DNA of 64,000 nucleotides from Candidatus Hydrogenedentota bacterium (GTDB taxonomy: Bacteria > Hydrogenedentota > Hydrogenedentia > Hydrogenedentales > JAJRTN01). The DNA is taken from NCBI GenBank assembly GCA_024278275.1, contig JAJRTN010000004.1, positions 3,149 through 67,148 on the forward strand, given 5' to 3'. The notes beneath the pieces were generated by a model. That model saw nothing but the letters and a program-made list of their open reading frames with translations, searched no databases and was not told the origin of the DNA. Shown here piece by piece: positions 12,166-50,554 of the stretch (within the stretch, counting starts at the first letter, position 1; the number at the start of each line of letters is the position of its first letter). A program made the position numbers and the translations under genes.

Positions 12166-12206
12166 CGGTTTAACGCCACCGGCCAAAGTTGAAACCGGCC
12201 TTTTTT
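12166..12206 (+). terminator. Candidate intrinsic terminator/attenuator hairpin followed by T6, in the leader of the PASTA-caspase gene
   Basis: ccggtttaac...gttgaaaccgg stem (one bulge) followed by cc-TTTTTT. No convincing ORF upstream in the 620-nt divergent intergenic region. Confidence 0.3.
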
Positions 12207-12351
12207 GTTATTGCGAAGGATGTCGAGCGACGGTGGCAATCTCCTATGCAAAGGCCTGTATTGGCACGTGAGTTCCTCTCTTTCTCGCAGTAACGGGCTT
12301 TTGTTGGTGGCGTTGGGTTATTTCGGAAAAAGAACGGGAAAGGTGGAGGTC

Positions 12352-14925
12352 ATGAAACACTATCGTTGGTTTTTGACGCTGGGGGCCCTGGTGAGCCTTG
12401 CTTTGGTGGGGTGTCCGCCGTCAATCGTTCCGGATGTGGTGGGCATGACGCAAGAGGCGGCGGAAGCCGCGATTGTCGCGGCCGGATTTTCCGTTGGTGC
12501 CGCGGCCGAGGAATACAGCGACACGGTGCCCGCGGGCGAGGTGATCAGCCAGGATCCGGCGGCGGGCGCCCACGCGGAACAGGGCAGTGTCGTGGCGCTT
12601 GTGGTGTCGATAGGACCCGAGTTAGAGGTGCAGGTTATTGAAGACACCAACCTGTCCACGGAGACGGGCCTAACGGACGGCGGGGTAACCCGCCAGGCCA
12701 CCCAGATGATGACCGGTACGGTGCCGAACCCGGCCGGCCCGGATGCCACCGAGTTCGAAGGCTCGGTGTTCCTGGTGCTTAATGGCGACAAGATCCCCGT
12801 CTCCGTCGTTCGCGAGACGGCGAAAACCGGCCAGGTGATCTACAAAAACGGCCAGGCCGAATTTCTCAACGATGCGGACCGCATCGCCCCGGAGACGGTC
12901 GAAGCCCTGTCCAAACAGGACGGTGCGTCGCTCTGGGTATTCCAGGTGACCTTCTCAGTGAACGCGGGACCGAATACGCTGCGTGTCGAGGTCTACGACC
13001 TGGAGGACTCCCTTTATGCACGCACGGAGGACTGGGATATTATCGGCGCAGTGGAGCCCACCAGCGTGGTCATCACCTTGTGGTGGGACACGAACCAGAC
13101 CGACATCGACCTGCATGTCAAGCAGTTCGACGAGGAAGGCACCGACGAGGGGCATTGCTATTACGCCAATCGGAGAGCGGGTGCCATGGAACTCGACTTC
13201 GACGACGTCAACGGCTTCGGCCCCGAGCATGTCACGGTCCCCGACGTGGTGGGGCACAAGCGTTTCGTCATTCGTGTCTACTACTACGCCGACCACAACG
13301 ACTCGGAAACCACGACGCCCACGCCGGTGCATATTACCGCGGAGGTGAATGGGGAAAACGAGCTGTCCGTGAGCAGCGTGCTGTCGTCGGAGAGCACCAA
13401 TTCCTCGTGGACCACGGGCGCGCATGTCTGGGAAGCGGGCGAGGTGGAGGCCTCGGGGGCGAATGTTTACACCATCAATCTGGCCGAGCCCGACCTGTCG
13501 GCCTGGCCCACGGTGAAGCTCACCATGAATGTCATGGATGAAGAGGGGGACCCGGTGGACGGGTTGACCGCGGACAACATTTACGTGATCAACTCCGGCA
13601 CCGCCATGTCGCCGATTACGGTGGCCGCGGCGAAAGCGGCCGGCGGCTATTCCCTCACCTATACCGATATTACCGCGGGTAAGCGCGATCTGTATGTCTA
13701 CATCTACAAGGCCGCGCAAAATGAAGGGGATCCCTCCGAGGGCGGCCTGTCGAATGTGCTCACCTATGGCAAGAATTACGGCGTGCTCGTCGGCTTGAAT
13801 GAATACCCCGCCGCATCGATGGACCCGGGCAACTTTTCCTGGGTCGGCGCCGCGGGCGGTGACTACGTGAACGTCACCGTGACCAAGACGCCCGACGGTC
13901 CCGGTGATTTCACCCTGATCTTCACCGATACCGAAGGCGGCACCAATCGGCCGGAGGTGAGTGTTACCCCCACCGCCATGGTGGGCGCGGCGTCACCTTA
14001 CCGCCTCAATTTCACCGAGCCGGCAAATTACGACGACTATGACCGGATCCAGGTGAAATACAAGAAGCAGTCCTGGTTGCAGGCCGCGGTGAAGGACGTG
14101 ACCGATATCAAGACCGCCCTCACCGGGACCTCCCTGGGGCAGGTCAACAACATGTGGACGGCGGCGGACTTCACCACCTACACCAACGCCGCCGCCAAGG
14201 AGGCCACCATTATCGACAAGATTAAGGCCATAGGCGGGGTGATGAAGAAATACGACCTCTTCTACTTCCACTTCTCCGGCCATGGCGCCAACGGCACCAC
14301 CGACGGCACCCAATACTTGTGCGCCTACGAGGATGCCAACTGGATCAGTGTCACCGACCTGTCGGCCGCGTTGGCCACCATACCCAAACCCGGCGCCACC
14401 AGCACCATTGCCAATGTGATCATCGGCATTGATGCCTGTCACAGCGGCAACTTTATCGACATGAAGCAGGTCTGCCTCTGCGACGACCCGGTACGGAACG
14501 AGCGGTGTCGAAACGTCGAGCCGCAGGCCGACACGCAAGAGAAGTATGACGGCCCCATATTGACCTTCCAGGAAGACCTGAAGGCCCTCACGGGAAACAA
14601 CCTCTTCGTGATGACGGCGGTGCCCGGCACCCATTCCGCCTGGGATGACACGTCCATCGGCGGCGCGGCCAACCCCGGGGGTAACGGCGTCTTCACCTAC
14701 TACCTCAAGCAGGGCATCAGCACCCAGGGCAAGTTCATGTCCGAGGTGGCCGCCAACACCAATCACGACACGTGGGTTACGGCCGAGGAAGCCTTCGCCT
14801 ACCTCGATCCCAAGGCCAACGCCCGCGTGACCACGGCCAACGGATTCCCCGCGGGTGCCGCGCAGGACCCGCAGGTCCTCGACAACAGCACCAGCAGCGT
14901 TACGCGGTTGGTCTACAACTGGTAG
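12352..14925 (+). CDS. Lipoprotein with an N-terminal PASTA domain, a DUF2135 (YfaP)-like region and a C-terminal caspase-like (peptidase C14) domain
   Basis: GGAGG RBS then ATG 12352. Lipobox LALVGC. PASTA consensus VPDVVGMTQEAAEAAIVAAGFSV...VISQDPAAGAHAEQGSVVALVVSIG. DUF2135-like WWDTNQTDIDLHVKQFDEEG...DFDDVNGFGPEHV. Caspase His-Cys dyad context FYFHFSGHGANG ... IGIDACHSGNF. Confidence 0.75.
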   Translation: MKHYRWFLTLGALVSLALVGCPPSIVPDVVGMTQEAAEAAIVAAGFSVGAAAEEYSDTVPAGEVISQDPAAGAHAEQGSVVALVVSIGPELEVQVIEDTNLSTETGLTDGGVTRQATQMMTGTVPNPAGPDATEFEGSVFLVLNGDKIPVSVVRETAKTGQVIYKNGQAEFLNDADRIAPETVEALSKQDGASLWVFQVTFSVNAGPNTLRVEVYDLEDSLYARTEDWDIIGAVEPTSVVITLWWDTNQTDIDLHVKQFDEEGTDEGHCYYANRRAGAMELDFDDVNGFGPEHVTVPDVVGHKRFVIRVYYYADHNDSETTTPTPVHITAEVNGENELSVSSVLSSESTNSSWTTGAHVWEAGEVEASGANVYTINLAEPDLSAWPTVKLTMNVMDEEGDPVDGLTADNIYVINSGTAMSPITVAAAKAAGGYSLTYTDITAGKRDLYVYIYKAAQNEGDPSEGGLSNVLTYGKNYGVLVGLNEYPAASMDPGNFSWVGAAGGDYVNVTVTKTPDGPGDFTLIFTDTEGGTNRPEVSVTPTAMVGAASPYRLNFTEPANYDDYDRIQVKYKKQSWLQAAVKDVTDIKTALTGTSLGQVNNMWTAADFTTYTNAAAKEATIIDKIKAIGGVMKKYDLFYFHFSGHGANGTTDGTQYLCAYEDANWISVTDLSAALATIPKPGATSTIANVIIGIDACHSGNFIDMKQVCLCDDPVRNERCRNVEPQADTQEKYDGPILTFQEDLKALTGNNLFVMTAVPGTHSAWDDTSIGGAANPGGNGVFTYYLKQGISTQGKFMSEVAANTNHDTWVTAEEAFAYLDPKANARVTTANGFPAGAAQDPQVLDNSTSSVTRLVYNW

Positions 14926-21224: not shown

Positions 21225-21326
21225 TCCGGGTAAGAAAGCCTTGCCGGTAGCGCCGTTGACATGTCACGGAAACGGATTACGGCACGCTTGAAGCGTGTAC
21301 CGCCTTTTTCGAGATTGCGAGGGATC

Positions 21327-21560
21327 ATGCCGCGAACGCGGAAAGAGTCGCCCCTTTCGGCCTTGCGCGCCTTGGGACTGGTGAGTGCCCTGGGCGCCAT
21401 GGTCGCCGTTTGCACGGTGGGCGGCACGCTGGTGGGGCTGTGGCTCGACGGGAAGGCCGGCACCGGCGGGTTTGTGGTGGTGGGCGTGTTCGCCGGCCTG
21501 GCGGCGGGAATCTATGGCGCCTACAGGCTTCTCGCGCGGGAATTACCATGGAACCAGTGA
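21327..21560 (+). CDS. atpZ: AtpZ/ATPase_gene1-family small membrane protein
   Basis: About 77 aa, two TM helices, pattern ALGLVSALG...GGTLVGLWLDGKAGTGGFVVVGVFAGLAAGIYGAYRLL typical of AtpZ, upstream of the atp operon. Confidence 0.7.
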   Translation: MPRTRKESPLSALRALGLVSALGAMVAVCTVGGTLVGLWLDGKAGTGGFVVVGVFAGLAAGIYGAYRLLARELPWNQ

Positions 21561-21928
21561 GACGATTTCGAATCATGGCCGTGCGTCTTTCCATCGCCAT
21601 TACCCTGGCGGCGGGCGCGATAGCCTTTCCTTTCGACCGCGTGGTGGCGCACGCGATCCTCTTATGCGGTCTTGGCGGCATTCTGGGTTTCTGGATTATG
21701 GCGTTGCGGATCGAAAAACTTGCATCGGTGTCCGGCGATAAGGTACATTCCTTGTCATTCAAGTGGGCTTTCCTTCGATATGTTATCTACGCGGCGGTTC
21801 TCGGCAGGGCGTTCACCCTTGACCGTGAGTCAATCAAGGGAATTCTTGCCGGTGTCGGCGGCTTGCTGATTATCCAGGCGGTGGTGGTGTTCCTTGGTTT
21901 GACCGGGTTGGATCGCCGTGTGACGTAA
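21548..21928 (+). CDS. atpI: ATP synthase protein I (AtpI-like) membrane protein
   Basis: 126 aa, four predicted TM segments, immediately upstream of atpB. ATG at 21548 overlaps the atpZ end. Confidence 0.5.
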   Translation: MEPVRRFRIMAVRLSIAITLAAGAIAFPFDRVVAHAILLCGLGGILGFWIMALRIEKLASVSGDKVHSLSFKWAFLRYVIYAAVLGRAFTLDRESIKGILAGVGGLLIIQAVVVFLGLTGLDRRVT

Positions 21929-21929
21929 C

Positions 21930-22718
21930 GTGACACGGAAGGGGAAAAAAAGTAGCGCCATGGAACGTATTGGCGAACGCCTTATCTGTCATTATTTGCC
22001 CTTCACCGACGTTGAGATTCCCCTCGGCGGTCTCAATGTGTTAACCGTTTTTAACACCTTGGTGGTCATGGTAATACTGTTGGGGTTGTCCCGGTGGGCC
22101 GTGCGCCGCTTCGCCCTGGTGCCCGGCCGCGGGCAGTGTGCCGTCGAACTTTTTGTCAGCGGCTTCGACAACCTGGTGACCAGTTCGCTGGAACTCGAAA
22201 CGAAACAGGCCAATCGCCGTTTCTTTGTGCTCATCGGGGCGTTGTTTCTTTTCCTCGTGCTCTGCAATTTCATGGGTTTCCTGCCGACCCACTATTTCGA
22301 GGAGCCCACGGCCGACATCAACTGTACCCTGGGCTTGGGTATCATGGGCATGGTCATCGCCACGTTCTGCGGCATGAAGGCGAAAGGGGTCTGGGGTTTC
22401 ATAGAAGAACTTTTCGGCCCCCTCTGGTCCCAGGAAGGCGCGAAGGGGGGAGCGCTGGTGGCGGGGAAACTTTCCGTTCTCTTTTTCTTTCCCTTGAACG
22501 TAGTGGGTGAACTGGCCAAGATTGTTTCCATATCGTTCCGTCTTTTCGGCAACATTATCGGCGGCGGCATCATTATCGTGGTGGTGTCCCAGTTGGTTTG
22601 GAACTTCAGTTGGCTTTCCATCGGTCTCGACGGCTTCTTCATCTTCTTCGTCGGCACCGTGCAGGCATTCGTGTTTACCATGCTGACCTTGACCTACATC
22701 GCGGTGGCCATTAAGTAG
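21930..22718 (+). CDS. atpB: F0 sector subunit a
   Basis: Conserved stator arginine motif FRLFGNIIGGG. Multi-TM. 262 aa (the start may instead be the internal MERIGERL). Confidence 0.85.
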   Translation: MTRKGKKSSAMERIGERLICHYLPFTDVEIPLGGLNVLTVFNTLVVMVILLGLSRWAVRRFALVPGRGQCAVELFVSGFDNLVTSSLELETKQANRRFFVLIGALFLFLVLCNFMGFLPTHYFEEPTADINCTLGLGIMGMVIATFCGMKAKGVWGFIEELFGPLWSQEGAKGGALVAGKLSVLFFFPLNVVGELAKIVSISFRLFGNIIGGGIIIVVVSQLVWNFSWLSIGLDGFFIFFVGTVQAFVFTMLTLTYIAVAIK

Positions 22719-22741
22719 GCGGGCCGCATTCAGAGGCGACA

Positions 22742-23719
22742 TTGTTCGAGTTTGAACCACATACTTGGGAGCTGCTGGGCCGGTATCTCGGCGCGGGCAT
22801 TGCCTTGGGTTTCGGCGGCATCGGCGCGGCCATCGGCATGGGCAACGCCGCGGCGCAGGCCAGCCACGGGATGATGCGTCAACCCGCCGTGCAGGGCGAG
22901 ATGCTGCGGACCATGCTTATCGGTCAGGCCGTGGGGAGCAGTCCCTCCATCTTCGCCCTGGTATTGGGCCTCATCATTCTTTTTGTTCCGGCGCAGGTGG
23001 TGGTGGGGGGAAGCTTCTGCGCCGCGCTGGTGGGCGGCGGACTGGCCATCGGCTTTGGCGCCCTGGGCAGCGGTCTGGGCTGCGGCTGGCCGGCCGGCCA
23101 TGCCTGCGACGGGGTCGCCCGTAACCCCGGCAACAGCAGCAACGTGACGCAGTCCATGATTATCGGTCAGGCCGTGGCGCAGTCGCCCAGCATTTTCGCC
23201 TTGGTGATAGGACTTATTCTCGTGTTCCGGCAGTCCCCCGGCACCGACGCGCTGGCCATGGGCATCGCCCTGGGCGCCGGTCTCTCCATCGGGGTGAGCG
23301 CTTTGGGCTCCGGAATCGGATCGGGACGCACTGCGGGGGGCGCGGTGGATGGCATCAGTTGCTGGCCCCAGTCCTACGGCACCACCCTGCGCACCATGCT
23401 GGTGGGCCAGGCGGTATGTGAAACCCCCGCCATTTTTGGCATGCTCGTGGCCTTCATCATGATGTTTGCCCTGCAGGACATGGACACGGGCCTCATTGGC
23501 TTCGCCAAGGTCTTCGGTGCGGCCGTGGCCGTGGGATTCGGGGGAATCGGCCCCGGCATCGGCAGTGGATTGGCCGCGGGAAGCGGCTGCGCCGCCACCG
23601 CGGCAAAGCCCCGCCACGACACGTTGATTCTGCGCACCATGCTTATCGGGCAGGCCGTGTCCCAATCCACGGCGATTTATGCCTTGATCATTTCCCTGAC
23701 CTTGCTTTACGTTTTGTAA
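22742..23719 (+). CDS. atpE: F0 subunit c, four fused hairpins (8 TM helices); only hairpin 3 retains the ion-binding Glu
   Basis: Four tandem c-subunit repeats, each with a GQAV helix-2 motif: AVGSSPSIF, AVAQSPSIF, AVCETPAIF, AVSQSTAIY. The canonical Glu becomes Ser, Gln, Glu, Gln. TTG start with an AGAGG RBS. The repeats have diverged (not identical). Confidence 0.8.
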   Translation: MFEFEPHTWELLGRYLGAGIALGFGGIGAAIGMGNAAAQASHGMMRQPAVQGEMLRTMLIGQAVGSSPSIFALVLGLIILFVPAQVVVGGSFCAALVGGGLAIGFGALGSGLGCGWPAGHACDGVARNPGNSSNVTQSMIIGQAVAQSPSIFALVIGLILVFRQSPGTDALAMGIALGAGLSIGVSALGSGIGSGRTAGGAVDGISCWPQSYGTTLRTMLVGQAVCETPAIFGMLVAFIMMFALQDMDTGLIGFAKVFGAAVAVGFGGIGPGIGSGLAAGSGCAATAAKPRHDTLILRTMLIGQAVSQSTAIYALIISLTLLYVL

Positions 23720-23850
23720 ACGCCTCCGCGTGTTGCGGAGCTTCAATGAGTGGATCGGTTGAAAGTGTGCCGCGTTAAGCGGCCAATACGACGCCTCATG
23801 GCGCGGGTGAAAAAGCACCCCGCGGGGCGCACGCGAAAGGATGAAATGGC

Positions 23851-24174
23851 ATGGACGTGACCACGCTTATTTCGGTGGTTGACACGGTCGTGAGCCAGCC
23901 CGCGGGGATGGTGGCCGATGCGGGCATCAGCGGCAAGGACGTTATCGAGGCCGGCGCGCTTATCGGCGCGGGCATCTGCATGGGCTTTGGCGCCATCGGC
24001 CCCGGCATCGGCGAGGGTTTTGCCGCGGGCAAGGCCTGCGAGGCCATTGGCCGCGCGCCCCAGGAAGCCGGTTTGTTGACCCGTACCATGCTCATCGGCC
24101 AGGCCGTTTCCGAGTCGACCGGTATCTACTCGCTCGTTGTGGCGCTGCTGATGCTTTTCGTCGTGGGCGCGTAA
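23851..24174 (+). CDS. atpE: F0 subunit c (single hairpin, Na+-type signature with two carboxylates)
   Basis: GIGEGFAAGKACEAIGRAPQEAG...MLIGQAVSESTGIYSLVVALLMLF closely matches the I. tartaricus/F. nucleatum Na+-binding c subunits (E in helix 1, E-S-T plus Y in helix 2). Confidence 0.85.
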   Translation: MDVTTLISVVDTVVSQPAGMVADAGISGKDVIEAGALIGAGICMGFGAIGPGIGEGFAAGKACEAIGRAPQEAGLLTRTMLIGQAVSESTGIYSLVVALLMLFVVGA

Positions 24175-24194: not shown

Positions 24195-24626
24195 ATGGTC
24201 ACCATCAACCTGACATTGTTCATCGAGGTGGGCCTGTTCCTCGTCTTCCTTTGGGCGATGAACCGCCTTGTGTTTCGTCCGCTGTTGAACGTCATGGACG
24301 GTCGCGATGAAAAACGCTCGGGTGATCTCCAGGTGGCCCGGGAAGCCGGCGCCGAGGCGGATCAACTGGAGAAGCAGTACGCCTCGGAATCCGTCCGAAT
24401 TCACCACGAAGCCAGCCGCGAGGTGGTACGCGCGCACCGGCAGGCACAGGAAGCCCACTTTCAGCGGCTTGCCGAACTGAAACAGCGGGGCGAGGAAGAG
24501 CTTAACGCGGTGCAACGGGAGGTTTCGGAGGCCATGGCCCTGGAGCGGAAAAACTACGAAGCCCTGGCGGTGGAACTTGCCGAGGCCATGGCGGAACAGC
24601 TTGCCGGGAAAGGGAATGCCGCTTGA
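24195..24626 (+). CDS. atpF: F0 subunit b
   Basis: Single N-terminal TM followed by a long charged helix. Position in the operon. Confidence 0.75.
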   Translation: MVTINLTLFIEVGLFLVFLWAMNRLVFRPLLNVMDGRDEKRSGDLQVAREAGAEADQLEKQYASESVRIHHEASREVVRAHRQAQEAHFQRLAELKQRGEEELNAVQREVSEAMALERKNYEALAVELAEAMAEQLAGKGNAA

Positions 24627-25396
24627 GCCCCGCGAAGAAATTCCTAATAATCTTTTTCGGTGTCGCCCTCGTGATCTGGATCGGGGCGAACGTGGCGTTG
24701 GGTCCGCCGGGCTATAGCCGCGCGTACCTTGACCAGTATCAAAACGAGCACGAACACTATCTTGAGATTATCAAGAGCAGTTACTACAAGCTCTATTCCG
24801 AAAGGCCCCACCTGCACCCCGTGGATGGCAAGGACGCGCCGCAGGGCTTTGCCCACCAGGTGGATTTCGTAAAAAAATATGAAGGCCGCGAGGCCTTCAT
24901 CCAGGAGCAGCACCGCAGGCATCTTTACGAGCTTTTTTTCGAGTTCTTCAACACGGGTCTCGTGGTGGTGCTCATCTGGCGCTTTGGTCGCAAGCCCCTT
25001 TTGAACCTGCTTGACAGCCGAATCGCGGATTTGCGCGAGCGGATTGAATCGGCCGCCCAGGCCCGCAAGGCCGCCGAGGATCGGCGCCGCAAAGCGGAGA
25101 TGCAGATTTCCCAGATTGCCGAGGAGAAGGCGCGCGTGGCCGAAGAGACCCGCGAACGCATTCAACGGGAACTCGGCCAACTGGAGGAAGCCAACGAACT
25201 GAGCCTGAAACTCATGGGCGAGGAACTGGCCGACCGGAAGGACCGGATCTACCAGAATGCCAGGGTGCAGGTGAAGGAAGAGCTTGTGAAACGGGCCATC
25301 GCCAGGGTGGAGGCCGATTATCGCGAACGGTGGGATTCGGCACGGGAAGCGGCCCAGTTCGAGCAATTCATCGAAGGCGTGGAGAAGGGCGCATGA
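24623..25396 (+). CDS. atpF: F0 subunit b' with an approximately 100-aa N-terminal extension containing an extra TM helix
   Basis: Second TM (TGLVVVLIWRFGRKPLL) followed by a b-type coiled coil. Additional N-terminal TM (FLIIFFGVALVIWIGANVALG). Overlaps atpF by 4 nt. Confidence 0.65.
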   Translation: MSPAKKFLIIFFGVALVIWIGANVALGPPGYSRAYLDQYQNEHEHYLEIIKSSYYKLYSERPHLHPVDGKDAPQGFAHQVDFVKKYEGREAFIQEQHRRHLYELFFEFFNTGLVVVLIWRFGRKPLLNLLDSRIADLRERIESAAQARKAAEDRRRKAEMQISQIAEEKARVAEETRERIQRELGQLEEANELSLKLMGEELADRKDRIYQNARVQVKEELVKRAIARVEADYRERWDSAREAAQFEQFIEGVEKGA

Positions 25397-25938
25397 AGGA
25401 TTATCTCATCGCCGAACGATATGCCCGCGGGCTGAGCGAATCCCTTTCGGACCGGGAATCGCTTGAACCCATGGCGGAGGCGCTCGCCGCCCTGGGCGCT
25501 TTGTATGAAGAAAGCCATGACTTGCGCAGCGTTCTCTCGAATCCCGCCATTGATGTTGCCCGCCGTGTTGATGTGCTGAGGCAGGTCTGCGACGGTATGG
25601 GAACGCCTTCCGTCGTGTTTCGGCTCGCGGAACTCATGGTACGGCGGGGGCGGATTACGCTTATGGCCAACGTGGCGGCGATTTTTTCGGAATTGGCCGA
25701 TGAACGGTTGAACCGAATCACGGCGCGTGTTACTTCCGCGGCGCCTCTTGACGAGCCCCGTCGGAGCCGCATTTGCGAGGCCCTTCGGAAGCATACGGAC
25801 AAGCAGGTGCGGCTGGATTGCCGCGAGGACAAGGAATTGCTGGGCGGCGTACACGTTCAGCTTGGCGACCGCGTGTATGACGGAAGCCTCAAAACGCGGC
25901 TCAAGAATATGAAGGATGCCTTGCTGGCCGAGGGATAA
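25393..25938 (+). CDS. atpH: F1 subunit delta (OSCP)
   Basis: ATGA overlap with the b' stop. MKDYLIAERYARGL N-terminus typical of delta. 181 aa. Confidence 0.8.
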   Translation: MKDYLIAERYARGLSESLSDRESLEPMAEALAALGALYEESHDLRSVLSNPAIDVARRVDVLRQVCDGMGTPSVVFRLAELMVRRGRITLMANVAAIFSELADERLNRITARVTSAAPLDEPRRSRICEALRKHTDKQVRLDCREDKELLGGVHVQLGDRVYDGSLKTRLKNMKDALLAEG

Positions 25939-26054: not shown

Positions 26055-27587
26055 ATGAAGATCCAGGCAACGGAAATCACGGAAATCATCAAGCGGCAGA
26101 TCGCCGATTACGAATCCACCGTGGAGATCGCCGAAGTCGGCACGGTGATTCAGGCCGGCGACGGCATCGCCCGGGTATTCGGTCTTGAGAAGGCCATGGC
26201 CGGCGAGTTGCTTGATTTCCCTGGCGGCGTGACGGGCATGGTCCTCAACCTCGAAGAGGACAACGTCGGCGCGGTTCTCTTTGGGGAATACGAGAAGATC
26301 GCCGAGGGCGACACGGTCAAGCGCACCGGGCGCATTGCCTCGGTGCCCGTGGGCGACGCGCTTATTGGCCGCGTGGTCGATGCCTTGGGGCAGCCGGTTG
26401 ACGGGCGTGGCGCGATTGACACAAACGAGTTCAACCCGGTCGAACGCATTGCTCCCGGGATCGTCGACCGCCAGCCCGTGTGCGAGCCCCTGCAAACCGG
26501 CTTGAAGGCCATCGATTCCATGACCGCCATCGGCCGGGGCCAGCGTGAGCTCATCATCGGCGACCGCCAGACCGGCAAGACGGCCATCGCCCTCGACACC
26601 ATTATCAACCAGCGCGGCGGCGACGTTATCTGCATCTACGTGGCTATCGGGCAGAAGCGGTCCACCGTGGCCCGCGTCGTGGAGGAGCTCAAGGAAAACG
26701 GCGCCATGGATTACACCATCGTGGTGTCCGCCACCGCCTCCGAAACCGCCCCACTCCAGTACCTGGCGCCCTTCGCCGGGGCGGCCATGGGAGAATACTT
26801 CCGGGACGCGGGCAAGCATGTGTGTATCGTCTACGACGATCTGTCCAAGCATGCCGTGGCGTATCGTCAGCTTTCGCTGCTGCTGCGCCGTCCGCCGGGC
26901 CGTGAAGCCTATCCCGGCGATGTGTTCTACCTGCACTCCCGCTTGCTGGAGCGCGCGGCGAAACTGAGCGACGAACGGGGAGGCGGCAGCCTGACCGCCC
27001 TGCCCATTATCGAGACCCAGGCCGGCGACGTGTCCGCTTATATTCCGACGAACGTCATCTCCATCACGGACGGCCAGATCTTCCTGGAAGCCAACCTCTT
27101 CTACTCGGGCGTGCGGCCGGCCATCAACCCCGGCATCAGCGTTTCCCGCGTGGGCGGCGCGGCCCAGAACAAGGCCATGAAGAAGGTGCAGGGTTCGCTT
27201 CGCCTCGACTTGGCGCAGTATCGCGAACTGGAGGCCTTCGCACAATTTGGAAGCGACCTGGATAAAACGACCCAGGCCCAGCTTAATCGCGGTGCCCGGC
27301 TGGTTGAAATACTCAAGCAGCCTCAGTATAAGCCCCTTGCCGTGGAGTTCCAGATCCTGATTATCCATGCGGCGTCGAAAGGCAAGCTGGATGATGTGCC
27401 CGTGGCCGCCGTGGCGCGTTACGAGGAAGAGCTCTACGCCTATTTTGAATCGGAGGCCAAGGAAACGCTACAGGAACTTCGTGAAACCGGCGCCATGAGC
27501 GAGGAACTGACCGTGAAGATCGATGAGGCCATCGACCGTTTTACGGAACGTTTCATGATGCGAAGCCGCGAAGAGGCCACGCAGTAA
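26055..27587 (+). CDS. atpA: F1 subunit alpha
   Basis: Walker A GDRQTGKT. Highly conserved alpha-subunit sequence. 510 aa. Confidence 0.95.
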
Positions 27588-27614: not shown

Positions 27615-29922
<2,308 letters not shown>

Positions 29923-29925
29923 ACC

Positions 29926-30342
29926 GTGGCCGAAGGCACCATCACTGTCGAGTTGTACGGACCAGAACGCGACCCGGTTCGCTTCGAGGTTCACGAAGCC
30001 GTGTTCCCGGGCGGCGGCGGCGTTTTCACCGTCCAACCGGGCCATACCAGTCTTTTGACCACGCTTCTCGCGGGGGTTGTGATCCTGAGAACCCGGGAAG
30101 GCGACGATCAGTATTTTGCCATCAGTGACGGTTTCGCCGAAGTCCGCGATGACCATGTTCGCGTTCTAAGCAGCGTTTTTGAATCAGGGCAAGATGTGGA
30201 CGTGGCCCGTGCCGAGGCCGCCCGCGAGCGTGCCGAGAGCCGTCTGCGAAAACCCGATGAAGATCTGGATCTCGCCCGTGCCGAAATGGCCATTCACCGG
30301 GCCCTGGCGCGAATCCAGGCCAGCAAGCGGCAGGATTATTAG
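29926..30342 (+). CDS. atpC: F1 subunit epsilon
   Basis: 138 aa, GTG start 4 nt after the atpD stop. Epsilon-like beta-sandwich plus C-terminal helices. Confidence 0.8.
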   Translation: MAEGTITVELYGPERDPVRFEVHEAVFPGGGGVFTVQPGHTSLLTTLLAGVVILRTREGDDQYFAISDGFAEVRDDHVRVLSSVFESGQDVDVARAEAARERAESRLRKPDEDLDLARAEMAIHRALARIQASKRQDY

Positions 30343-32025: not shown

Positions 32026-32114
32026 CCCACACACCGCCCCTTGACACCTGAACATATATTCAGTATAATTTGCAGTGGCCAAGGACACAGGCAAAGGAGG
32101 AAAGGGGTATTCCC

Positions 32115-34718
32115 ATGAGGATGATCGAACTTATGCGCTATGACGTGCCGCCGGAGGTGATTGCTTTGTGGCGGGAACGGGAAAGCGACACGCTGCTGCC
32201 GTTGCAGGAAATGGCGGTGAAGCGCTACAGGCTCTTTGAGAAGGGCAATCGCCTGATCCAGGCGCCCACCAGCTCGGGCAAGACCTTTATTGGCGAAATG
32301 GCGGCGCTCCAGACGGCCATGCGGCGGAAGAAGGTGGTCTACCTGGTGCCCTTGAAGGCCCTGGCCGAGGAGAAGTACCACGACTTCCGGGAGAAATACG
32401 AAAGCTATGGTTTGAAGGTCATCGTTTCGAGCCGGGATCGACGGGAGTTCGACCGCGACCTGGAGACGGGGGATTTCTCCATCGCGGTGGTGGTGTATGA
32501 AAAGCTGTCGCAGCTCCTCGTGCGTCGCCCGGAGCGGCTGGAAGAGATAGACCTTATTATCGCGGACGAGTTGGAAATCCTGTCGGACCCGGAGCGGGGC
32601 GCCATGGTGGAGTTGCTGCTTACGCGCATTCTGCAGTCGGCGTGTCGTCTCATCGGGTTGTCGGCGGTGATCGGCGAGGCGGAACGGTTGGCCCGGTGGA
32701 TGAAGGCGGAGTTGCTCCATTACGACCGGCGGCCGGTGGAACTGCGCTACGGCGTGCTCCACGAAGGGGTCTTCCGTTATCGCACCTACAACGATTGCGC
32801 CGAGGGCGAGGAAAGCCTGGTGGACGCCCATGGGGAGTCCACTTGGGAAGGGGTGATCCAAAACGTGTGCGCTTTCGTTGCGCGGGGGGAGACCTGTCTC
32901 ATATTCGTGAAGGCCAAGCACGAATCGCGGCGGGGGGCGGAATTGCTCAAAGACCGCCTCCATGAACCCGCCGCGACGGAGGCGGTGGAGAAACTGCGCG
33001 GCCTTGAAGCGACGCGGTCGCGGGACGCACTGATCGAGTGCATGAACCAGGGTGTGGCCTTTCATAACGCGGATCTTTCACAGGCGGAACGTCTCGTGGT
33101 GGAAGAGGCCTTTCGAAAGGGCGAGGTGAAACTCATGATTTCAACGAGCACCCTCGCGGTGGGATTGAACATGCCGGCGCGGAATGTTTTCCTTACCCCG
33201 GAGAAATGGCGCTATGATCAACGCCTTGACATGCCGTGGAAGACGCCCATCCTGCATACGGAATACGAGAACATGGGCGGCCGCGCGGGGCGCTACGGCG
33301 CGGGCCATGCCTTTGGCCGGTCGATCCTGGTCGCCGCGACGCCCTTCGATTTCGAGACCCTGTGGCGGCGCTACATACAGGGGGAACGGGAAAGTATCGA
33401 GCCCCGCCTGGCGAAGGAGCCGCTGGAAAACCACGTGCTCCGCCTGGTGGCCTCCCGCTTCTGCCGAACCCTGGCGGAACTGTTGACCTTTCTGGAAAAC
33501 ACCCTCACGGGCCGGTGGATTTGGGCCGAGACCTTCACCCTGGAGGAGATCGCGTTTCGCATCCGCGCCGCCGTCAATCGCTGCATCGACGCGGGGGTGC
33601 TCACGTCGAACGAGGGGGGCCGCCTGGAGGCCACGCCTTTCGGGCTGGCCATCGCCTCGAAGGGTATTTGCATTGCCACGGCGCGGGAACTGGAGCATTG
33701 GATCAGTGAATCCGAAACGCGGGAGTGGAGCGATATCGATCTCATTTTCGCCGCCGCCGTCACGCCCGACGGGCGCATGTTCCAGGTGATGCTTACAGCG
33801 CGGGAGTATGAGCACGCCGACTATACGGGCCGCATCAGGCGTCACACGGTCCGGGACGACCTCGCCGCCGACACGCCCCTGAACCGAATCCGAAAGGGCA
33901 ACCTCACGCCCTTCTTCGAGGAGGTGCGGGCCATCAAGATCGCCCTGTTCCTCGAACACTGGATCGCGCAGGAACCCGTTCACGGCCTGGAAGAGCAGTT
34001 TCACACCATGTCCGGGCAGATCGTGTCCGCCGCGCAGCAGATCAGTTGGCTTCTCGACGCCACGGCCACCATCGCTTCCGCCCTCGGGGGAAAAAAGACC
34101 TTTATCACGCGCATCCGTCTCCTTTCCGAGCGGCTCCAGTACGGGGTGCTGGAGGAGACGCTTCCCCTGGCCCGGCAACGTCTCGCGAAGGGACGACGCG
34201 GCGTGGTACTGGAGATGGCGCGTGCGGGGCTTCACACGCCGGAGGCCCTGGCCGGGGCGTCCGAGGCCCAACTCCGGCCCTGGCTGAAACCCGCGGCAAT
34301 TCGCCGGCTCCAGGAATGGGCGCGGACCCAATGCCGGTCCCGGAAGCACCCGGCGGCGGAGACCGCCTCAAGCCCGGCCCCGGTTCTCGTGGTGGACGAC
34401 CGCCAGCCGGATCGTATCGAACTCGATGGGAAAGTGGTTATCCTGCAGGAAAAGCAGTACTGCCTCATTCGAATCCTGGCCGCCACGCCGGGGCAGTGCG
34501 TGCCCTACGACACGATCTACGCGGCCCTATGGGGCGATACCGTGGTGGAGAACAACCAGATGCACTACCAGAAGCAGAACCTGCTCAAGCGGATCCGATC
34601 CACGGTTCCGGACCGCGCCAACCTGGTCCGCACCATCCCCAAACGCGGTTTTGTCCTGGATCTCCCGGAGGAGGCGGTGCGCTGCCCGGAAAGCCCGGCC
34701 ATGTCTCCCGCCGCATGA
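32115..34718 (+). CDS. Ski2/Hel308-like DExH helicase fused to a C-terminal HhH motif and an OmpR/CadC-type winged-helix (trans_reg_C) DNA-binding domain
   Basis: AAGGAGG RBS and ATG 32115. Walker A APTSSGKT. DExH-type motif IIADELEIL. Helicase C-domain motifs. HhH-like LEMARAGLHTPEALAGA. C-terminal wHTH VVILQEKQYCLIRILAATPGQCVPYDTIYAALWG...LVRTIPKRGFVLD. Confidence 0.75.
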   Translation: MRMIELMRYDVPPEVIALWRERESDTLLPLQEMAVKRYRLFEKGNRLIQAPTSSGKTFIGEMAALQTAMRRKKVVYLVPLKALAEEKYHDFREKYESYGLKVIVSSRDRREFDRDLETGDFSIAVVVYEKLSQLLVRRPERLEEIDLIIADELEILSDPERGAMVELLLTRILQSACRLIGLSAVIGEAERLARWMKAELLHYDRRPVELRYGVLHEGVFRYRTYNDCAEGEESLVDAHGESTWEGVIQNVCAFVARGETCLIFVKAKHESRRGAELLKDRLHEPAATEAVEKLRGLEATRSRDALIECMNQGVAFHNADLSQAERLVVEEAFRKGEVKLMISTSTLAVGLNMPARNVFLTPEKWRYDQRLDMPWKTPILHTEYENMGGRAGRYGAGHAFGRSILVAATPFDFETLWRRYIQGERESIEPRLAKEPLENHVLRLVASRFCRTLAELLTFLENTLTGRWIWAETFTLEEIAFRIRAAVNRCIDAGVLTSNEGGRLEATPFGLAIASKGICIATARELEHWISESETREWSDIDLIFAAAVTPDGRMFQVMLTAREYEHADYTGRIRRHTVRDDLAADTPLNRIRKGNLTPFFEEVRAIKIALFLEHWIAQEPVHGLEEQFHTMSGQIVSAAQQISWLLDATATIASALGGKKTFITRIRLLSERLQYGVLEETLPLARQRLAKGRRGVVLEMARAGLHTPEALAGASEAQLRPWLKPAAIRRLQEWARTQCRSRKHPAAETASSPAPVLVVDDRQPDRIELDGKVVILQEKQYCLIRILAATPGQCVPYDTIYAALWGDTVVENNQMHYQKQNLLKRIRSTVPDRANLVRTIPKRGFVLDLPEEAVRCPESPAMSPAA

Positions 34719-42624: not shown

Positions 42625-43929
42625 CTACCGAACGAGGTTCACGGTCTCCTGCAAAATGGTATCCGCCGCGGTGATGGTCCGGGCGTTGGCCTGGTAACCG
42701 CGCTGGGTGATAATGAGATTGCTGAATTCCTCACCCAGGTCCACGTTTGAGTTTTCGAGCACGCCGCCGGAAACGGTTCCGCGACCGCCGGTGCCCGGCC
42801 GGCCCACCTGGGCGTTGCCCGAGGAAGGCGTCTCGACGAAGGTGTTGTCACCATCGCGGGACAACCCGCCCAGGTTCGCGAAGTTGGCCAAGGCCACCTG
42901 CGCGATGGTCCGGGTCAGGCCGTTGGTGAAGACCCCGTTGATCTCGCCGTTGGCGCCAATGTTGAAGCTCTCCAGCACGCCCCGGGGAAAACCGTTCTGC
43001 GAGCGCAGGGCGATATCGCTGGTGGCCGGGTCGCCGGAGGTGGGATCGAAGCCCGCGCTGAGCTGGGTCACCTCGTCCATGTCGACAACGAACTGGAAGG
43101 GCAACGTGGGAAGGGAATCGGGCAGGGGCGTGCCCAAATCGCCCGATTCCAGGCTGATGGCCAGGGTGGTGCCGGCGGCCAGGGTACCGTCGGTCTGGAA
43201 GGTGATTACATCCGTGGCGCCGCCACCGCCCACGTTCGCGGGAGTGCCGCTTCCGTTGTCAAAGGTGGCTTCCCAGGCCCACTCATTGGCGGTGGTTCCC
43301 TTGGTGAAGACCAGGGAGATCTCACGCTCCGTGCCCAGTGAATCGTAGACCACGATGGTTCGGGTGACGGTGTCCCCGTCGCTCACGTCGGAGTTCAGGT
43401 TGCCCGTCATGGTGGCGGTGGTGGTGGCCTGTACGATGCCCTGGCCGCCCACGGGCACAACAATATCCGAAGCGATGGCGTCGCTGGGAATGACACCGTT
43501 CTCATCGGCCTGGAAACCCTGGACACGCATCCCGGACCCCGGCTCGATCAGTATGCCATTGACATTGAGCGTAAACGAGCCGTCGCGGGTATAGGCGGCG
43601 TTACCGTTGATATCTTCCAAAACGAAGAAGCCCGACCCCTGAATGGCCAGGTCCGACGATATGCCGGTGGTCATCAGCGAACCCTGTCCATGGTTCACGT
43701 CGATGCTGGCGATGTTGGCGCCCAACCCGATCTGGAGCGGGTTGCTGCCGCCGAAACCGCCGAGGGGCGCGGAACCGCCCGCCAGGGTCTGGGAAAAGAG
43801 ATCCTGAAACAACATGCGCGAGGAGCGGTAGCCAACGGTGTTCACGTTGGCGATGTTGGCCGCCACCACGTCAAGCCGGCGCTGATGCGCCCGCAAACCG
43901 GTTACACCGGTAAACATTGCACTTCCCAT
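42625..43929 (-). CDS. flgE: Flagellar hook protein FlgE
   Basis: N-terminal LRAHQRRLDVVAANIANVNTVGYR. C-terminal NVDLGEEFSNLIITQRGYQANARTITAADTILQETVNLVR. Confidence 0.9.
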   Translation of the reverse strand: MGSAMFTGVTGLRAHQRRLDVVAANIANVNTVGYRSSRMLFQDLFSQTLAGGSAPLGGFGGSNPLQIGLGANIASIDVNHGQGSLMTTGISSDLAIQGSGFFVLEDINGNAAYTRDGSFTLNVNGILIEPGSGMRVQGFQADENGVIPSDAIASDIVVPVGGQGIVQATTTATMTGNLNSDVSDGDTVTRTIVVYDSLGTEREISLVFTKGTTANEWAWEATFDNGSGTPANVGGGGATDVITFQTDGTLAAGTTLAISLESGDLGTPLPDSLPTLPFQFVVDMDEVTQLSAGFDPTSGDPATSDIALRSQNGFPRGVLESFNIGANGEINGVFTNGLTRTIAQVALANFANLGGLSRDGDNTFVETPSSGNAQVGRPGTGGRGTVSGGVLENSNVDLGEEFSNLIITQRGYQANARTITAADTILQETVNLVR

Positions 43930-43942
43930 GAGAATACACTCC

Positions 43943-44452
43943 TTAGGTCATGGCGCCGCGTCGGTCGTTCCGCGGTGCCCGGGCGTCCCTCAAGGGGTCC
44001 GGCCCGTATACTGAGTTCAATGCCGTATCCGCCCGGGCTTCGGGCCGATCCGGTCGGTGCTCCGCCTCGCTCGTGGGGAGCACGGCGGCACTGTCGATGT
44101 GGGTAAAGATGGACGCATTGCCGTCACTCGTGTCAACGGCCGTGATAATCGTCCGGTTGGGGACACTGGCCACGAGGGCCACATCGCCCAGCAGGACCAA
44201 TGCCTCTTTTCCGCCTTTCCCGGCCAATTGGTCGAGCGTCTCGCCCACGCGGGCCAGGTCTTCAGCGGACAATTCGACACCGCGCGTTCGGAGCCGTTGC
44301 GCCGCGTGCGCCGAAACGCGCACGGCCCGGGAGGCCTCCATGGTTTCGCCGAGAATATCGGCAAAGCGCGTGCCTGGGGTTGCGGCCGGCCGTGTGTCCG
44401 ATGGCACGGAACGGAACGTCACCCGTGCTTCGAGGGATACAGGGTTAACCAT
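43943..44452 (-). CDS. Flagellar operon protein of unknown function (flgD-flgE intergenic gene, TIGR02530-like position)
   Basis: Conserved location between flgD and flgE as in Bacillus/spirochaete operons. No catalytic motif. The start MVNPVSLEA overlaps the flgD stop by 8 nt. Confidence 0.45.
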   Translation of the reverse strand: MVNPVSLEARVTFRSVPSDTRPAATPGTRFADILGETMEASRAVRVSAHAAQRLRTRGVELSAEDLARVGETLDQLAGKGGKEALVLLGDVALVASVPNRTIITAVDTSDGNASIFTHIDSAAVLPTSEAEHRPDRPEARADTALNSVYGPDPLRDARAPRNDRRGAMT

Positions 44453-45020
44453 GGTCCGACTCCGCCACGGGCGCTTCATCGGCCACCGACAGCACGTTGG
44501 TCATGGGCAGCACTTCTCCGTCTACCGTCAGGACCACGATACTGCCCTCCAGGTGTACGGCATCGACCGTACCGGTCACGGCGCCTCCATCCATCCCAAC
44601 GCCCTCGACATACTTGCCGAGCATACTTTGGGCATTGATGAAGTTAAGCTGATCAATGTTGCCGGTCAGGTATTCAAGCCCGGTCACAACGCCTTCGAAA
44701 CGGTCGTTCAGTTGCTGCATCTGTTCGAGGGAAGAAAACTGGGCCAGTTGGGCGACCATCTCGGCGTTATCAACGGGCTCCAGCGGGTTCTGATTCTGCA
44801 TCTCCAACACAAGCAGTTGAAGAAAGGCATCCCGGTCAAGTTGATCGCCGGCGGCGCCGGCGACCGGCTCCCCGGTATCGACGGCCTTGTCGGTGGAACC
44901 CGGGGCAACCGCGGACGCCTTGGCGTTGGCGCTGATTGTTTCTCGAGCGGCTTGCCGGTCCGCCTTGGTCACCGAGAGAGTTCCGGAGACATTGGCACGG
45001 AACGCTACAAGTGCGTTCAT
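44445..45020 (-). CDS. flgD: Flagellar hook assembly/capping protein FlgD
   Basis: RDAFLQLLVLEMQNQNPLEPVDNAEMVAQLAQFSSLEQMQQL signature. Confidence 0.85.
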   Translation of the reverse strand: MNALVAFRANVSGTLSVTKADRQAARETISANAKASAVAPGSTDKAVDTGEPVAGAAGDQLDRDAFLQLLVLEMQNQNPLEPVDNAEMVAQLAQFSSLEQMQQLNDRFEGVVTGLEYLTGNIDQLNFINAQSMLGKYVEGVGMDGGAVTGTVDAVHLEGSIVVLTVDGEVLPMTNVLSVADEAPVAESDHG

Positions 45021-45099
45021 GGAACACTTCCTCCTCTTTTTCGAATCGGGTCCGTCACGGCAACGGGCCGCAACGGCGTTTCATGATTGTTTGCGCAGG

Positions 45100-47298: not shown

Positions 47299-47458
47299 AT
47301 ATTACTCACCTCCTTTCCTGTGGGAATACCAATACCGGGGGCGAACACCCCCGGGGGTTGGGAAGAATGTGGTCGTACAGGGGGATGGGACGTATGAGAC
47401 ATATGGGACGTATGGAATACATACATCCCCTGGAAGCCCCCGAAACCATCTTGTGCGG

Positions 47459-48022
47459 CTAATTTCCGAGACGTTTCAACTCGCGAAGGATGCGGGTCGC
47501 ATCGCTGGGGTCGAGGGCGTCGAGAATCTTGCCGGCCTCCTGCGTCTTGATGGTGTTGAAAACCCGCGCCGCGTCCTCGGGATTTTCATCGGCGAGTTCC
47601 TTGAGCACCTTCGCGGCCTTGTCGGGCTTCATGGCTTCCATGCGCACGGCGATGGATTCAAGGCGCTTGGCCCGCTCTTTCTCACGATCATCAATGGTGG
47701 CGTCAATCTCGGCACGCAGGGTTTCCATCTGGGCCACAAGCTGTTGAAGGTTTGTTTCGCGTTCGTTAAGCTGTGTTTCGCGCTGGTCGAGTTGCTCTTG
47801 CCGCTTGCGCAGTTCCGCTTCTTTTTTCTTGAGCCGGTCGGCAAGGGAACCCAGTTCGTCAACGGGAGCGGCCTGCTCGGGTGCTTTCTCCACGGGGGCG
47901 GTTTCGCCGCCCAGGAGCCGGTCCAGGGCCTCTTGATTGAGGTTGCCGGTAAAGAAGAGCATGAGCGCCAGGCATGCTGCGAACGACATGATTCCAATAA
48001 GGGCATAGATCACTATTTTCAT
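47459..48022 (-). CDS. FlbB/MotE-like flagellar protein (MgtE_N-like helical domain)
   Basis: N-terminal TM, coiled coil, C-terminal AAKVLKELADENPEDAARVFNTIKTQEAGKILDALDPSDATRIL MgtE_N-type repeats. Confidence 0.5.
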   Translation of the reverse strand: MKIVIYALIGIMSFAACLALMLFFTGNLNQEALDRLLGGETAPVEKAPEQAAPVDELGSLADRLKKKEAELRKRQEQLDQRETQLNERETNLQQLVAQMETLRAEIDATIDDREKERAKRLESIAVRMEAMKPDKAAKVLKELADENPEDAARVFNTIKTQEAGKILDALDPSDATRILRELKRLGN

Positions 48023-48501
48023 GTGTTTTCCCGCCATCCATGGGCCGCGTCATCCGTCACCGAACGCGCCGCGCGCGTGGAGCCGGTCTCGTCCAGCAAT
48101 TTCTGTTCCGCCCGATCCAAATCGCGCCGCCACAACGCTTCACGTCGTTCAATGAGCCGCTCCACCATGCGCCGCTCCTTCATGGCGGCCTCCAAAGAGG
48201 CACGCTCCACCTCCGAGCGGTCCCGTAACGCATGCAGTTCGGCATCCTTCGCGACCGTCCGTTCGGCCAGATGCCGTTCGTATTGATAGTAGCGCCGCGC
48301 CTCGCCCGCGTCAAAGGTTCCCGAGGCGCGCCTGCCCGCCTCGTGCAGCGCCCGGCGCCGTGCCCGCATCAGCTCTTCCCGCTGACGCTCGGCCATGTCG
48401 GCCTCGCGGCGAAGCTCCGCCAGGAGCCGGGCCTGCATGTCCTCTTTCCGCTTGCGCACGCGCAAGAGGGTGTCGAAACATCTCTTAGGCCGCCTCGTCA
48501 T
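48019..48501 (-). CDS. fliJ: Flagellar export chaperone FliJ
   Basis: About 160-aa all-coiled-coil Arg/Glu/Ala-rich protein between fliI and fliK. Confidence 0.6.
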   Translation of the reverse strand: MTRRPKRCFDTLLRVRKRKEDMQARLLAELRREADMAERQREELMRARRRALHEAGRRASGTFDAGEARRYYQYERHLAERTVAKDAELHALRDRSEVERASLEAAMKERRMVERLIERREALWRRDLDRAEQKLLDETGSTRAARSVTDDAAHGWRENT

Positions 48502-48505
48502 GGTC

Positions 48506-50535: not shown

Positions 50536-50554
50536 TCCCGCTTATATCGGCGGC

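Follow-up and report, generated by a model that had tools for sequence, protein, structure and literature searches.

How many ion-binding sites a c-ring carries fixes the ion/ATP ratio of an ATP synthase, a basic bioenergetic constant of the cell. To our knowledge, only one natural F-type design has been characterized in which a c-subunit hairpin is "blank," i.e., supplies no ion-binding site: the rotor of Acetobacterium woodii, with one blank in 11 hairpins. This rotor serves as a model for the evolution of a synthase into a V-type pump. The A. woodii ring consists of nine single c subunits and one copy of c1 (PMC9171764), a two-hairpin protein in which one site is complete and the other hairpin is blank. 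An earlier note on the DNA considered here, which was made from the sequence alone, had named A. woodii as the sole F-type hybrid case; this has to be widened, as Clostridium aceticum carries the same c1/c2 gene pair (PMC7911925). Here, we describe an F-type atp operon in a 64,000 nt stretch of a Candidatus Hydrogenedentota genome (contig JAJRTN010000004.1, positions 3,149 to 67,148; hereafter "the window") that encodes a c subunit of four fused hairpins, termed c4, immediately upstream of a single-hairpin Na+-type c subunit, termed single c.

In the solved Na+ rings, Glu65 and Glu/Gln32 of a binding site are provided by one subunit, the Val63 oxygen and Ser66 are provided by its neighbor, and Tyr70 and Thr67 support the site (PMC3692424). 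The c11 rings of Ilyobacter tartaricus and Fusobacterium nucleatum are homomeric, contain a site in each hairpin and have no fused partner. Fused hairpins with fewer carboxylates than hairpins are found in V/A-type proteolipids, where they lower the ion/ATP ratio (PMC9171764). Examples include NtpK of Enterococcus hirae, the eukaryotic c/c'/c'' subunits, the V-type c subunits of Pyrococcus or Eubacterium callanderi, and the K subunits of Methanocaldococcus jannaschii (three hairpins) and Methanopyrus kandleri (13 hairpins). We know of no V/A-type proteolipid with two or more adjoining blank hairpins. These proteins are structural neighbors of c4 in Foldseek searches, but they are distant in sequence and encoded in V/A-type operons. 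Finally, engineered single-chain c-rings of Bacillus PS3, which are artificial, unlike the natural c4, demonstrate that fused hairpins still assemble, and adjacent defective sites are tolerated better in them than dispersed ones (PMC8809890).

The four hairpins of c4 (R1 to R4, Table 1) are recognized by Pfam ATP-synt_C (PF00137) as four stretches (E 2.9e-52, 175 bits), and the protein exceeds the cutoffs of the NCBIfam F0F1 subunit C models NF005521 and NF009999. An AlphaFold2 model based on a 100-sequence alignment (predicted local distance difference test 97, predicted template modeling score 0.93) shows eight long helices forming four hairpins, in agreement with the earlier note, which had read four hairpins from a single open reading frame (ORF). 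In alignments with the c subunits of I. tartaricus, Escherichia coli and A. woodii (c2/3), with whose reference sequences searches of the Protein Data Bank (PDB) agree, the carboxylate column of c4 is occupied by S66, Q147, E227 and Q308. The corresponding helix-2 motifs are AVGSSPSIF, AVAQSPSIF, AVCETPAIF and AVSQSTAIY. The order S, Q, E, Q given by the earlier note is thereby reproduced, and its concern that the S and Q positions might not be homologous to the canonical carboxylate is removed by their placement in that same column. While F-type c subunits carry Glu or Asp in every hairpin, c4 carries a carboxylate in one of four. The helix-1 ligand position (I. tartaricus Q32) is M, C, S and S in R1 to R4, and no hairpin of c4 joins equivalents of Glu65 and Glu/Gln32 with a preceding hairpin that bears the Tyr.

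The adjoining single c protein contains one ATP-synt_C stretch (E 2.5e-17). Its aligned residues are E55, at the position of I. tartaricus Q32 and F. nucleatum E32, followed by V86, E88, S89, T90 and Y93. It carries the two-carboxylate Na+ motif as defined for F. nucleatum (PMC3692424), in which a helix-1 Glu is combined with a helix-2 Glu-Ser-Thr...Tyr, and the E32/E65/S66/T67/Y70 pattern is shared with the F. nucleatum protein. This is in line with the earlier note, which had described a canonical two-carboxylate c subunit next to c4. Single c is 53% identical to the I. tartaricus sequence, and its hairpin is 82% identical to that of a single c from Desulfobacteraceae. In PDB sequence searches it matches A. 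woodii c1/c2 and the I. tartaricus and F. nucleatum c subunits best. The N-terminus (23851-23930) forms a non-hydrophobic extension of approximately 25 amino acids (MDVTTLISVVDTVVSQPAGMVADAGISGK), which the I. tartaricus and F. nucleatum proteins do not have. Single c proteins of Hydrogenedentota are 102-131 amino acids long, compared with 78-103 in most loci of other phyla.

Among solved structures, c4 is closest to A. woodii c1. The top PDB sequence match is 4BEM_J (phmmer E 4.9e-24), with R3 and R4 aligned to c1 hairpins 1 and 2, which places E227 opposite the Glu of c1 and Q308 opposite its Gln. The same chain is the top Foldseek match of the c4 model, with a root-mean-square deviation of 1.5 Å over 159 columns at 39% identity. 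Every Foldseek match was confined to approximately half of the model or less (TMq 0.46 or lower), and thus the search gave no solved chain that contains more than two hairpins. Nothing in c1 corresponds to R1 and R2. The arrangement is shared as well: in both organisms a multi-hairpin c gene lies directly upstream of the gene (or genes) for a single Na+-type c within an F-type operon, and the last hairpin of the fused protein has exchanged Glu for Gln yet retains its Thr and Tyr ligands. The c1 motifs AVAETSGIF and AVAQTTGIY follow the same positional rule as c4, with Phe at the Tyr position of the first hairpin. In contrast to c1, with its two hairpins and one complete Na+ site, c4 has four hairpins with three to four consecutive blanks and no complete site. 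Moreover, single c carries a helix-1 Glu where the A. woodii protein has Gln, and the host belongs to the Hydrogenedentota rather than to the Firmicutes acetogens, as do A. woodii and C. aceticum.

A tandem array of atpE copies that collapsed or became chimeric during assembly could in principle be misread as a single four-hairpin ORF. The four repeats of c4 are only 32-44% identical to each other at the protein level, and Tandem Repeats Finder detected no DNA repeat of hairpin length, its sole output being two short arrays of period 12 (scores 37-38). This leads us to reject a collapsed tandem assembly. In addition, the earlier note had proposed a search for atpE relatives of 300-350 amino acids, and this search returned more than 100 homologs of 316-333 amino acids from independent assemblies. 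These are 60-86% identical to c4 and colinear with it including the N-terminus, which coincides with the TTG start at 22742. Each hairpin bears its own conserved signature across 100 homologs, and the c4 protein is on record in identical form on an NCBI contig. We therefore attach next to no weight to an artefact.

Conservation was assessed in 117 close homologs for the site columns and in 100 for the remaining columns and loop motifs. The named homologs are annotated as "ATP synthase F0 subunit C" of Candidatus Hydrogenedentes or Hydrogenedentota. Gln is found at the site position in 116 of 117 proteins in both R2 (Q147) and R4 (Q308), while the R1 column contains Gly in 94, Ser in 20 and Glu in three, and the R3 column (E227) Gln in 63, Glu in 52 and Asp in two. 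More than half of these proteins are devoid of any carboxylate. Fifty columns are invariant in the 100-sequence alignment, Q147 and Q308 are nearly so, and c4 appears to be under strong purifying selection. Each hairpin also has a near-invariant cytoplasmic loop motif of its own (R46-Q47-P48, R127-N128-P129, W208-P209 and P290). Such distinct motifs hint, by way of speculation, that the gamma and epsilon subunits could dock at a fixed place on c4.

A scan of genomes, using one genome per species, returned 323 matching stretches, the best 80 of which were inspected as loci; the following statements are limited to these 80, because some of the scan patterns also match single c genes. In 78 of 80 loci, a c gene of three, four, five or six hairpins is directly followed by a single c gene with an E/E or Q/E site and the S-T-x-x-Y motif, and nearly all of them share the succession a, c(multi), c(single), b'. 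According to the names given in the database records, the loci span approximately 10 bacterial groups: Hydrogenedentota, Desulfobacteraceae, Desulfarculia, Desulfatiglandales, Brocadiaceae, Phycisphaerae, Planctomycetota and Brocadiia, as well as Cloacimonadota, Anaerolineae, Spirochaetota, Coatesbacteria, Verrucomicrobiota and Marinamargulisbacteria. One of them, among the Desulfobacterota-type lineages, belongs to a cultured isolate, Dethiosulfatarculus sandiegensis SPR (locus L036, 7998-9215), which has a five-hairpin c next to a single c. In an exhaustive HMMER scan of 1.84 billion cluster representatives, 71 clusters passed E <= 1e-30 and 322 passed E <= 1e-10, and the representatives listed are mostly proteins of two to six hairpins. 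Outside of the Hydrogenedentota, the first hairpin usually has a full E/E site and the others have Gln (e.g., E,Q,Q,Q or E,Q,Q,Q,Q,Q). In nearest-neighbor comparisons, R1 of the window is similar to first hairpins from other phyla, R2 to second or third ones, R3 to third and R4 to last ones. Taken together, the E-first patterns and this hairpin-by-hairpin likeness indicate that the multi-hairpin architecture is old and that the R1 site was lost secondarily in the Hydrogenedentota.

Further fused c subunits were observed in the course of these scans. F-type c subunits of five or six hairpins (405-489 amino acids) occur in L036, L048, L051, L053, L068, L079, P0044, P0054, P0058 and P0118, with the site patterns E,Q,Q,Q,(Q,)Q or E,Q,Q,Q,E and a single E/E c gene after each of them. 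A second large family of four-hairpin c proteins (approximately 312-324 amino acids; P0178, P0185, P0206, P0216 and approximately 60 more representatives) is 27-32% identical to c4, has the site pattern E,Q,E,D/E and is F-type-like by NCBIfam. Giant c polypeptides of eight to 15 hairpins were also found, namely P0157 (968 amino acids), P0141 (1139), P0249 (1042), P0211 (784) and P0191 (631). P0141 and P0249 are of the V/A type and resemble the K subunit of M. kandleri. The 13 hairpins of P0157, which scores best with F0F1 subunit C models, mostly carry a two-carboxylate "E...LVESAY" motif, and this protein may represent a whole F-type ring in one chain.

Residue counts by position over the 80 loci, in I. 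tartaricus numbering, reveal a distinct distribution of the ligands that solved rings draw from the neighboring subunit. The last hairpins of the fused proteins retain V63, S66, T67 and Y70 in approximately 75 of 79 cases, even though Gln occupies the site itself in 64 of the 79. Position 70 is Phe in first hairpins (76 of 79) and in middle hairpins (136 of 145), position 67 is Pro in 125 of 145 middle hairpins, and single c has E65, T67 and Y70 in all 79 cases. Where a Tyr70 hairpin occurs internally, the hairpin after it bears a carboxylate in 4 of 4 instances among the loci and in 12 of 13 among the representatives. Conversely, the loci contain 191 blank hairpins, and not one of these comes after a Tyr70 hairpin. 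No association was seen in the reverse direction. This pattern suggests that the V/S/T/Y set of hairpin i-1 serves the Glu of hairpin i. R4 of c4 would then have to adjoin a Glu-bearing hairpin, and since R1 of c4 lacks a carboxylate, its neighbor would be a single c. We consider this rule on last-hairpin ligands the strongest sequence-based argument for c4 as a member of a hetero-oligomeric ring, and it is from this rule that we infer the co-assembly of c4 and single c.

The translation signals of the two genes point in the same direction. In the Hydrogenedentota loci (L001-L039), the start codon of c4 is GTG or TTG in 34 of 37 cases and that of single c is ATG in 35 of 37, and in the other phyla the Shine-Dalgarno interaction is stronger for single c (median -9.4 vs. 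-5.85 kcal/mol). These signals fit c4 as a minor, sub-stoichiometric species, and the weak c4 starts may be the translational means of keeping the ratio of c4 to single c low.

We propose that the operon encodes a Na+-coupled F1Fo ATP synthase with a mixed c-ring, in which the F/V-hybrid rotor known from A. woodii is extended, and assign this reading a probability of roughly 0.7. In such a ring, many copies of single c, each with its E55/E88 Na+ site, would make up most of the circumference, and one or a few copies of c4 would be inserted among them. Each c4 would contribute eight helices without a single complete Na+ site: R1, with Ser, and R2, with Gln, would be blank, R3 would hold an orphan Glu without the usual co-ligands, and R4, with Gln, would again be blank while its Val, Ser, Thr and Tyr complete the site for Na+ in the following single c. 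The result would be a ring with a contiguous arc of three to four ion-less steps and a Na+/ATP ratio below that of a ring of the same size made of single c only. Assuming a ring of 11 hairpins with one copy of c4, both of which are assumptions, 7-8 instead of 11 ions would be transported per three ATP, i.e., 2.3-2.7 compared with 3.7 Na+/ATP. This lower ratio would permit steeper Na+ gradients in pump mode, or else synthesis at a high sodium-motive force or a low phosphorylation potential. For A. woodii, the Gln was reportedly proposed to satisfy the Arg of subunit a in passage, and the near-invariant Gln residues of R2 and R4 may do the same. The mixed ring with fewer sites than hairpins had already been suggested by the earlier note and now finds comparative backing in the match to A. 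woodii c1, the 78 gene pairs among 80 loci and the ligands of the last hairpins. The analysis shows the homologies, the arrangement of the genes, the residue patterns and their conservation, and from these we infer the co-assembly, stoichiometry, ion specificity and physiological direction of the enzyme.

Several points weigh against the mixed Na+ ring. Na+ specificity is deduced from motif identity, and the direction in which sites are shared between hairpins derives from sequence statistics rather than from coordinates. Furthermore, a single E56Q exchange in the fused c10 ring of Bacillus PS3 abolishes ATP synthesis (PMC8809890), while the natural series described here keeps three to five consecutive Gln or otherwise blank hairpins. 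On the basis of the PS3 result, three to four consecutive blanks are mechanistically hard to square with synthesis.

The mixed ring might also contain c4 in a different role, with E227 acting as a genuine additional coupling site for H+ or, at low affinity, for Na+, so that each c4 would carry one ion per turn. H+-type c-rings require little beyond the carboxylate, R3 aligns with the site-bearing hairpin 1 of A. woodii c1, and the closest relatives keep an acidic residue in R3 (E or D in L001-L009, D in L020 and L024). Against these stand the surroundings of the residue. The helix-1 Glu/Gln ligand is replaced by Ser, and the preceding R2 offers V145 and S148 but Pro149 and Phe152 in place of Thr and Tyr. 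Among close relatives the carboxylate is exchanged with Gln (54 vs. 63), and all 31 comparable non-first carboxylates in the loci are of the same orphan kind, with neither an E/Q32 partner nor a preceding Tyr. In our view, E227 is an orphan carboxylate and not a canonical Na+ site; it might bind H+ or pair with the Arg of subunit a as c4 passes by. Its service as a coupling site seems doubtful to us, though with a real chance of being true. The claim of the earlier note that c4 retains a single coupling site thus holds with regard to the lone carboxylate, but not securely with regard to a true site, given the Gln in 63 of 117 homologs and the helix-1 Ser; c4 may contribute no canonical Na+ site at all.

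Other explanations dispense with the mixed ring altogether. The two c genes of one operon, whose differing translation signals could permit differential expression, might give rise to two alternative homomeric rotors between which the cell switches gears: a ring of c4, e.g., of three copies with 12 hairpins, three Glu and approximately one ion per ATP, which the one carboxylate of the window protein would allow, and a ring of single c. However, R3 has no carboxylate in most close relatives and most of these have none anywhere in c4, so that a ring of c4 only would be unable to translocate ions, and the V/S/T/Y set of R4 would be turned toward the following c4, whose R1 has no carboxylate, and would serve no site. 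The two genes are co-oriented, and scans detected neither a promoter-like nor a plus-strand terminator-like site in the spacer between them (one chance-level promoter match lies within the c4 gene, and promoter and terminator counts across the operon are at chance level). The precedent of A. woodii is, likewise, a mixed ring (PMC9171764), and we consider a gear switch highly improbable. Alternatively, c4 might not be a rotor component but a scaffold or template for c-ring assembly, a membrane plug, or a decaying paralog that is tolerated. Loss of carboxylates would be expected of a non-catalytic paralog, and the weak start codons of c4 suggest low expression. Such a role is hard to reconcile with position-specific conservation across a wide phylogeny, including the retained Gly motifs, loop motifs and site Gln residues, and the rule on last-hairpin ligands makes sense only in a ring beside a functional site. 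In addition, the structure of A. woodii c1, as it is in the ring, can be laid over adjacent c4 hairpins, and a decaying gene would be unlikely to persist intact in at least 80 species genomes. We judge a function outside of the rotor to be unlikely, and retain the mixed Na+ ring as the preferred reading.

The genomic context is that of a standard F-type operon (Table 1), in which c4 lies alongside the genes for subunits a, b, delta, alpha, gamma, beta and epsilon in the order atpZ-like, atpI, a, c4, c, b', b, delta, alpha, gamma, beta, epsilon. The standard operon described in the earlier note is thus confirmed by Pfam, which recognizes all subunits, atpI weakly. The atpZ-like gene occupies the same position in most Hydrogenedentota loci, and atpI has a phmmer match at the equivalent position in related loci; its start is probably Met47 of the ORF 21410-21928. 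Subunit a retains the essential Arg (SFRLFGN), and an alignment with the E. coli protein shows that the equivalents of R210, N214 and Q252 are kept. The start of atpH is probably Met22 of the ORF 25330-25938, overlapping the stop codon of the b gene (ATGA).

Table 1. Positions of the atp genes and of the c4 hairpins in the window.
Feature	Position	Strand	Description
atpZ-like (small membrane protein; gene at the head of the operon)	21261..21560	+	Pfam PF09527 ATPase_gene1, E 1.2e-10
atpI (c-ring assembly factor)	21548..21928	+	Pfam PF03899 ATP-synt_I, E 8.6e-4, below gathering score
atpB, Fo subunit a	21930..22718	+	Pfam PF00119, E 4.2e-41; NCBIfam TIGR01131 above cutoff
c4 (first atpE)	22742..23719	+	TTG start, 325 amino acids, four fused hairpins, eight transmembrane helices
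Hairpin R1	22742..22993	+	Amino acids 1-84; S66 codon 22937-22939; helix-1 ligand position occupied by Met; loop MRQP
Hairpin R2	22994..23236	+	Amino acids 85-165; Q147 codon 23180-23182, followed by S-P-x-x-F; loop ARNP
Hairpin R3	23237..23476	+	Amino acids 166-245; sole c4 carboxylate E227, codon 23420-23422; Ser at helix-1 ligand position
Hairpin R4	23477..23716	+	Amino acids 246-325; Q308 codon 23663-23665; V306, S309, T310, Y313 kept
Loops of R1-R4	22877-22885, 23120-23128, 23363-23368, 23609-23611
Single c (second atpE)	23851..24174	+	ATG start, 107 amino acids, one hairpin, two-carboxylate Na+ motif
atpF' (b')	24195..24626	+	Pfam PF00430, E 2.4e-7
atpF (b)	24623..25396	+	Pfam PF00430, E 3.2e-5, slightly below cutoff; position conserved
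atpH (delta/OSCP)	25393..25938	+	Pfam PF00213, E 1.3e-41
atpA (alpha)	26055..27587	+	Pfam ATP-synt_ab N-terminal, core and C-terminal domains
atpG (gamma)	27615..28475	+	Pfam PF00231, E 2.7e-99
atpD (beta)	28489..29922	+	Pfam ATP-synt_ab
atpC (epsilon)	29926..30342	+	Pfam PF02823 and PF00401

Two other classes of rotary ATPase were considered and rejected. An N-type ATPase (atpDCQRBEFAG, without delta) does not match the standard F-type gene order and the presence of delta/OSCP; c4 does exceed the cutoff of the N-type model TIGR03322 (134.8 vs. 130.85; single c 61.8), but this is because the scores of its four repeats are summed. A V/A-type proteolipid is not supported either, as the NCBIfam models for V-type K subunits give 54-81 bits against cutoffs of 101-211 and the operon is F-type. 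The predicted RNA fold of the 131-nt spacer between c4 and single c is no more stable than that of shuffled sequence (z = -0.72), and hence makes no case for a regulatory structure between the two genes. On the minus strand, an ORF of 362 amino acids (22730-23818) spans the entire c4 gene, and similar antisense ORFs cover most of the operon. The ORF over c4 is taken as a by-product of high GC content (65% in the c4 gene, 62% in the window) and not as a gene.

Elsewhere in the window, an 882-amino acid DEAD/Ski2-like helicase with an "archaeal helicase domain 4" is encoded shortly downstream of the atp operon (32070-34718, plus strand). A 906-amino acid protein combining a PASTA domain with a caspase (Peptidase_C14) domain is encoded at 12205-14925 (plus strand), and a flagellar cluster occupies 42625-53144 on the minus strand, with genes for the FlgE hook protein (42625-43929), FliK (45100-47298), the FliI ATPase (48506-49819) and FliF (51585-53144).

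Full-text literature searches retrieved no description of an F-type c subunit with three or more hairpins, although a key review on hybrid rotors lay outside of the search and an earlier mention is possible. A 2026 mBio paper merely refers to "two to four atpE copies" in Desulfatiglandales, and databases label c4-type proteins simply as "ATP synthase F0 subunit C." The impression of the earlier note that a four-fold fusion is not a recognized arrangement therefore stands insofar as no description was found; it is no one-off, however, but a member of a series of two to six hairpins. In our estimation, the chances are evenly balanced that these proteins constitute an undescribed, widespread class of F-type rotors in anaerobic and uncultured bacteria, in which a chain of three to six hairpins places two to five contiguous ion-less positions (Gln, Gly or Ser) into a Na+ c-ring.

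If this is true, the ion/ATP ratios of these enzymes would lie below those of every characterized F-type enzyme, and the a/c interface would cross approximately a third of a turn without ion exchange. An ion-less arc of this kind is not predicted to be viable for synthesis by current models of torque generation or by the PS3 E56Q result; whether a rotor can step past such long arcs is what this family would test. The question is open to experiment, because a cultured member exists in D. sandiegensis SPR and the A. woodii enzyme has been produced in E. coli from a plasmid (PMC9171764). A family with three to five consecutive blanks would extend the series that begins with A. woodii much further, and would have a bearing on the gearing of ATP synthases in organisms that operate at the thermodynamic limit or need steep Na+ gradients.

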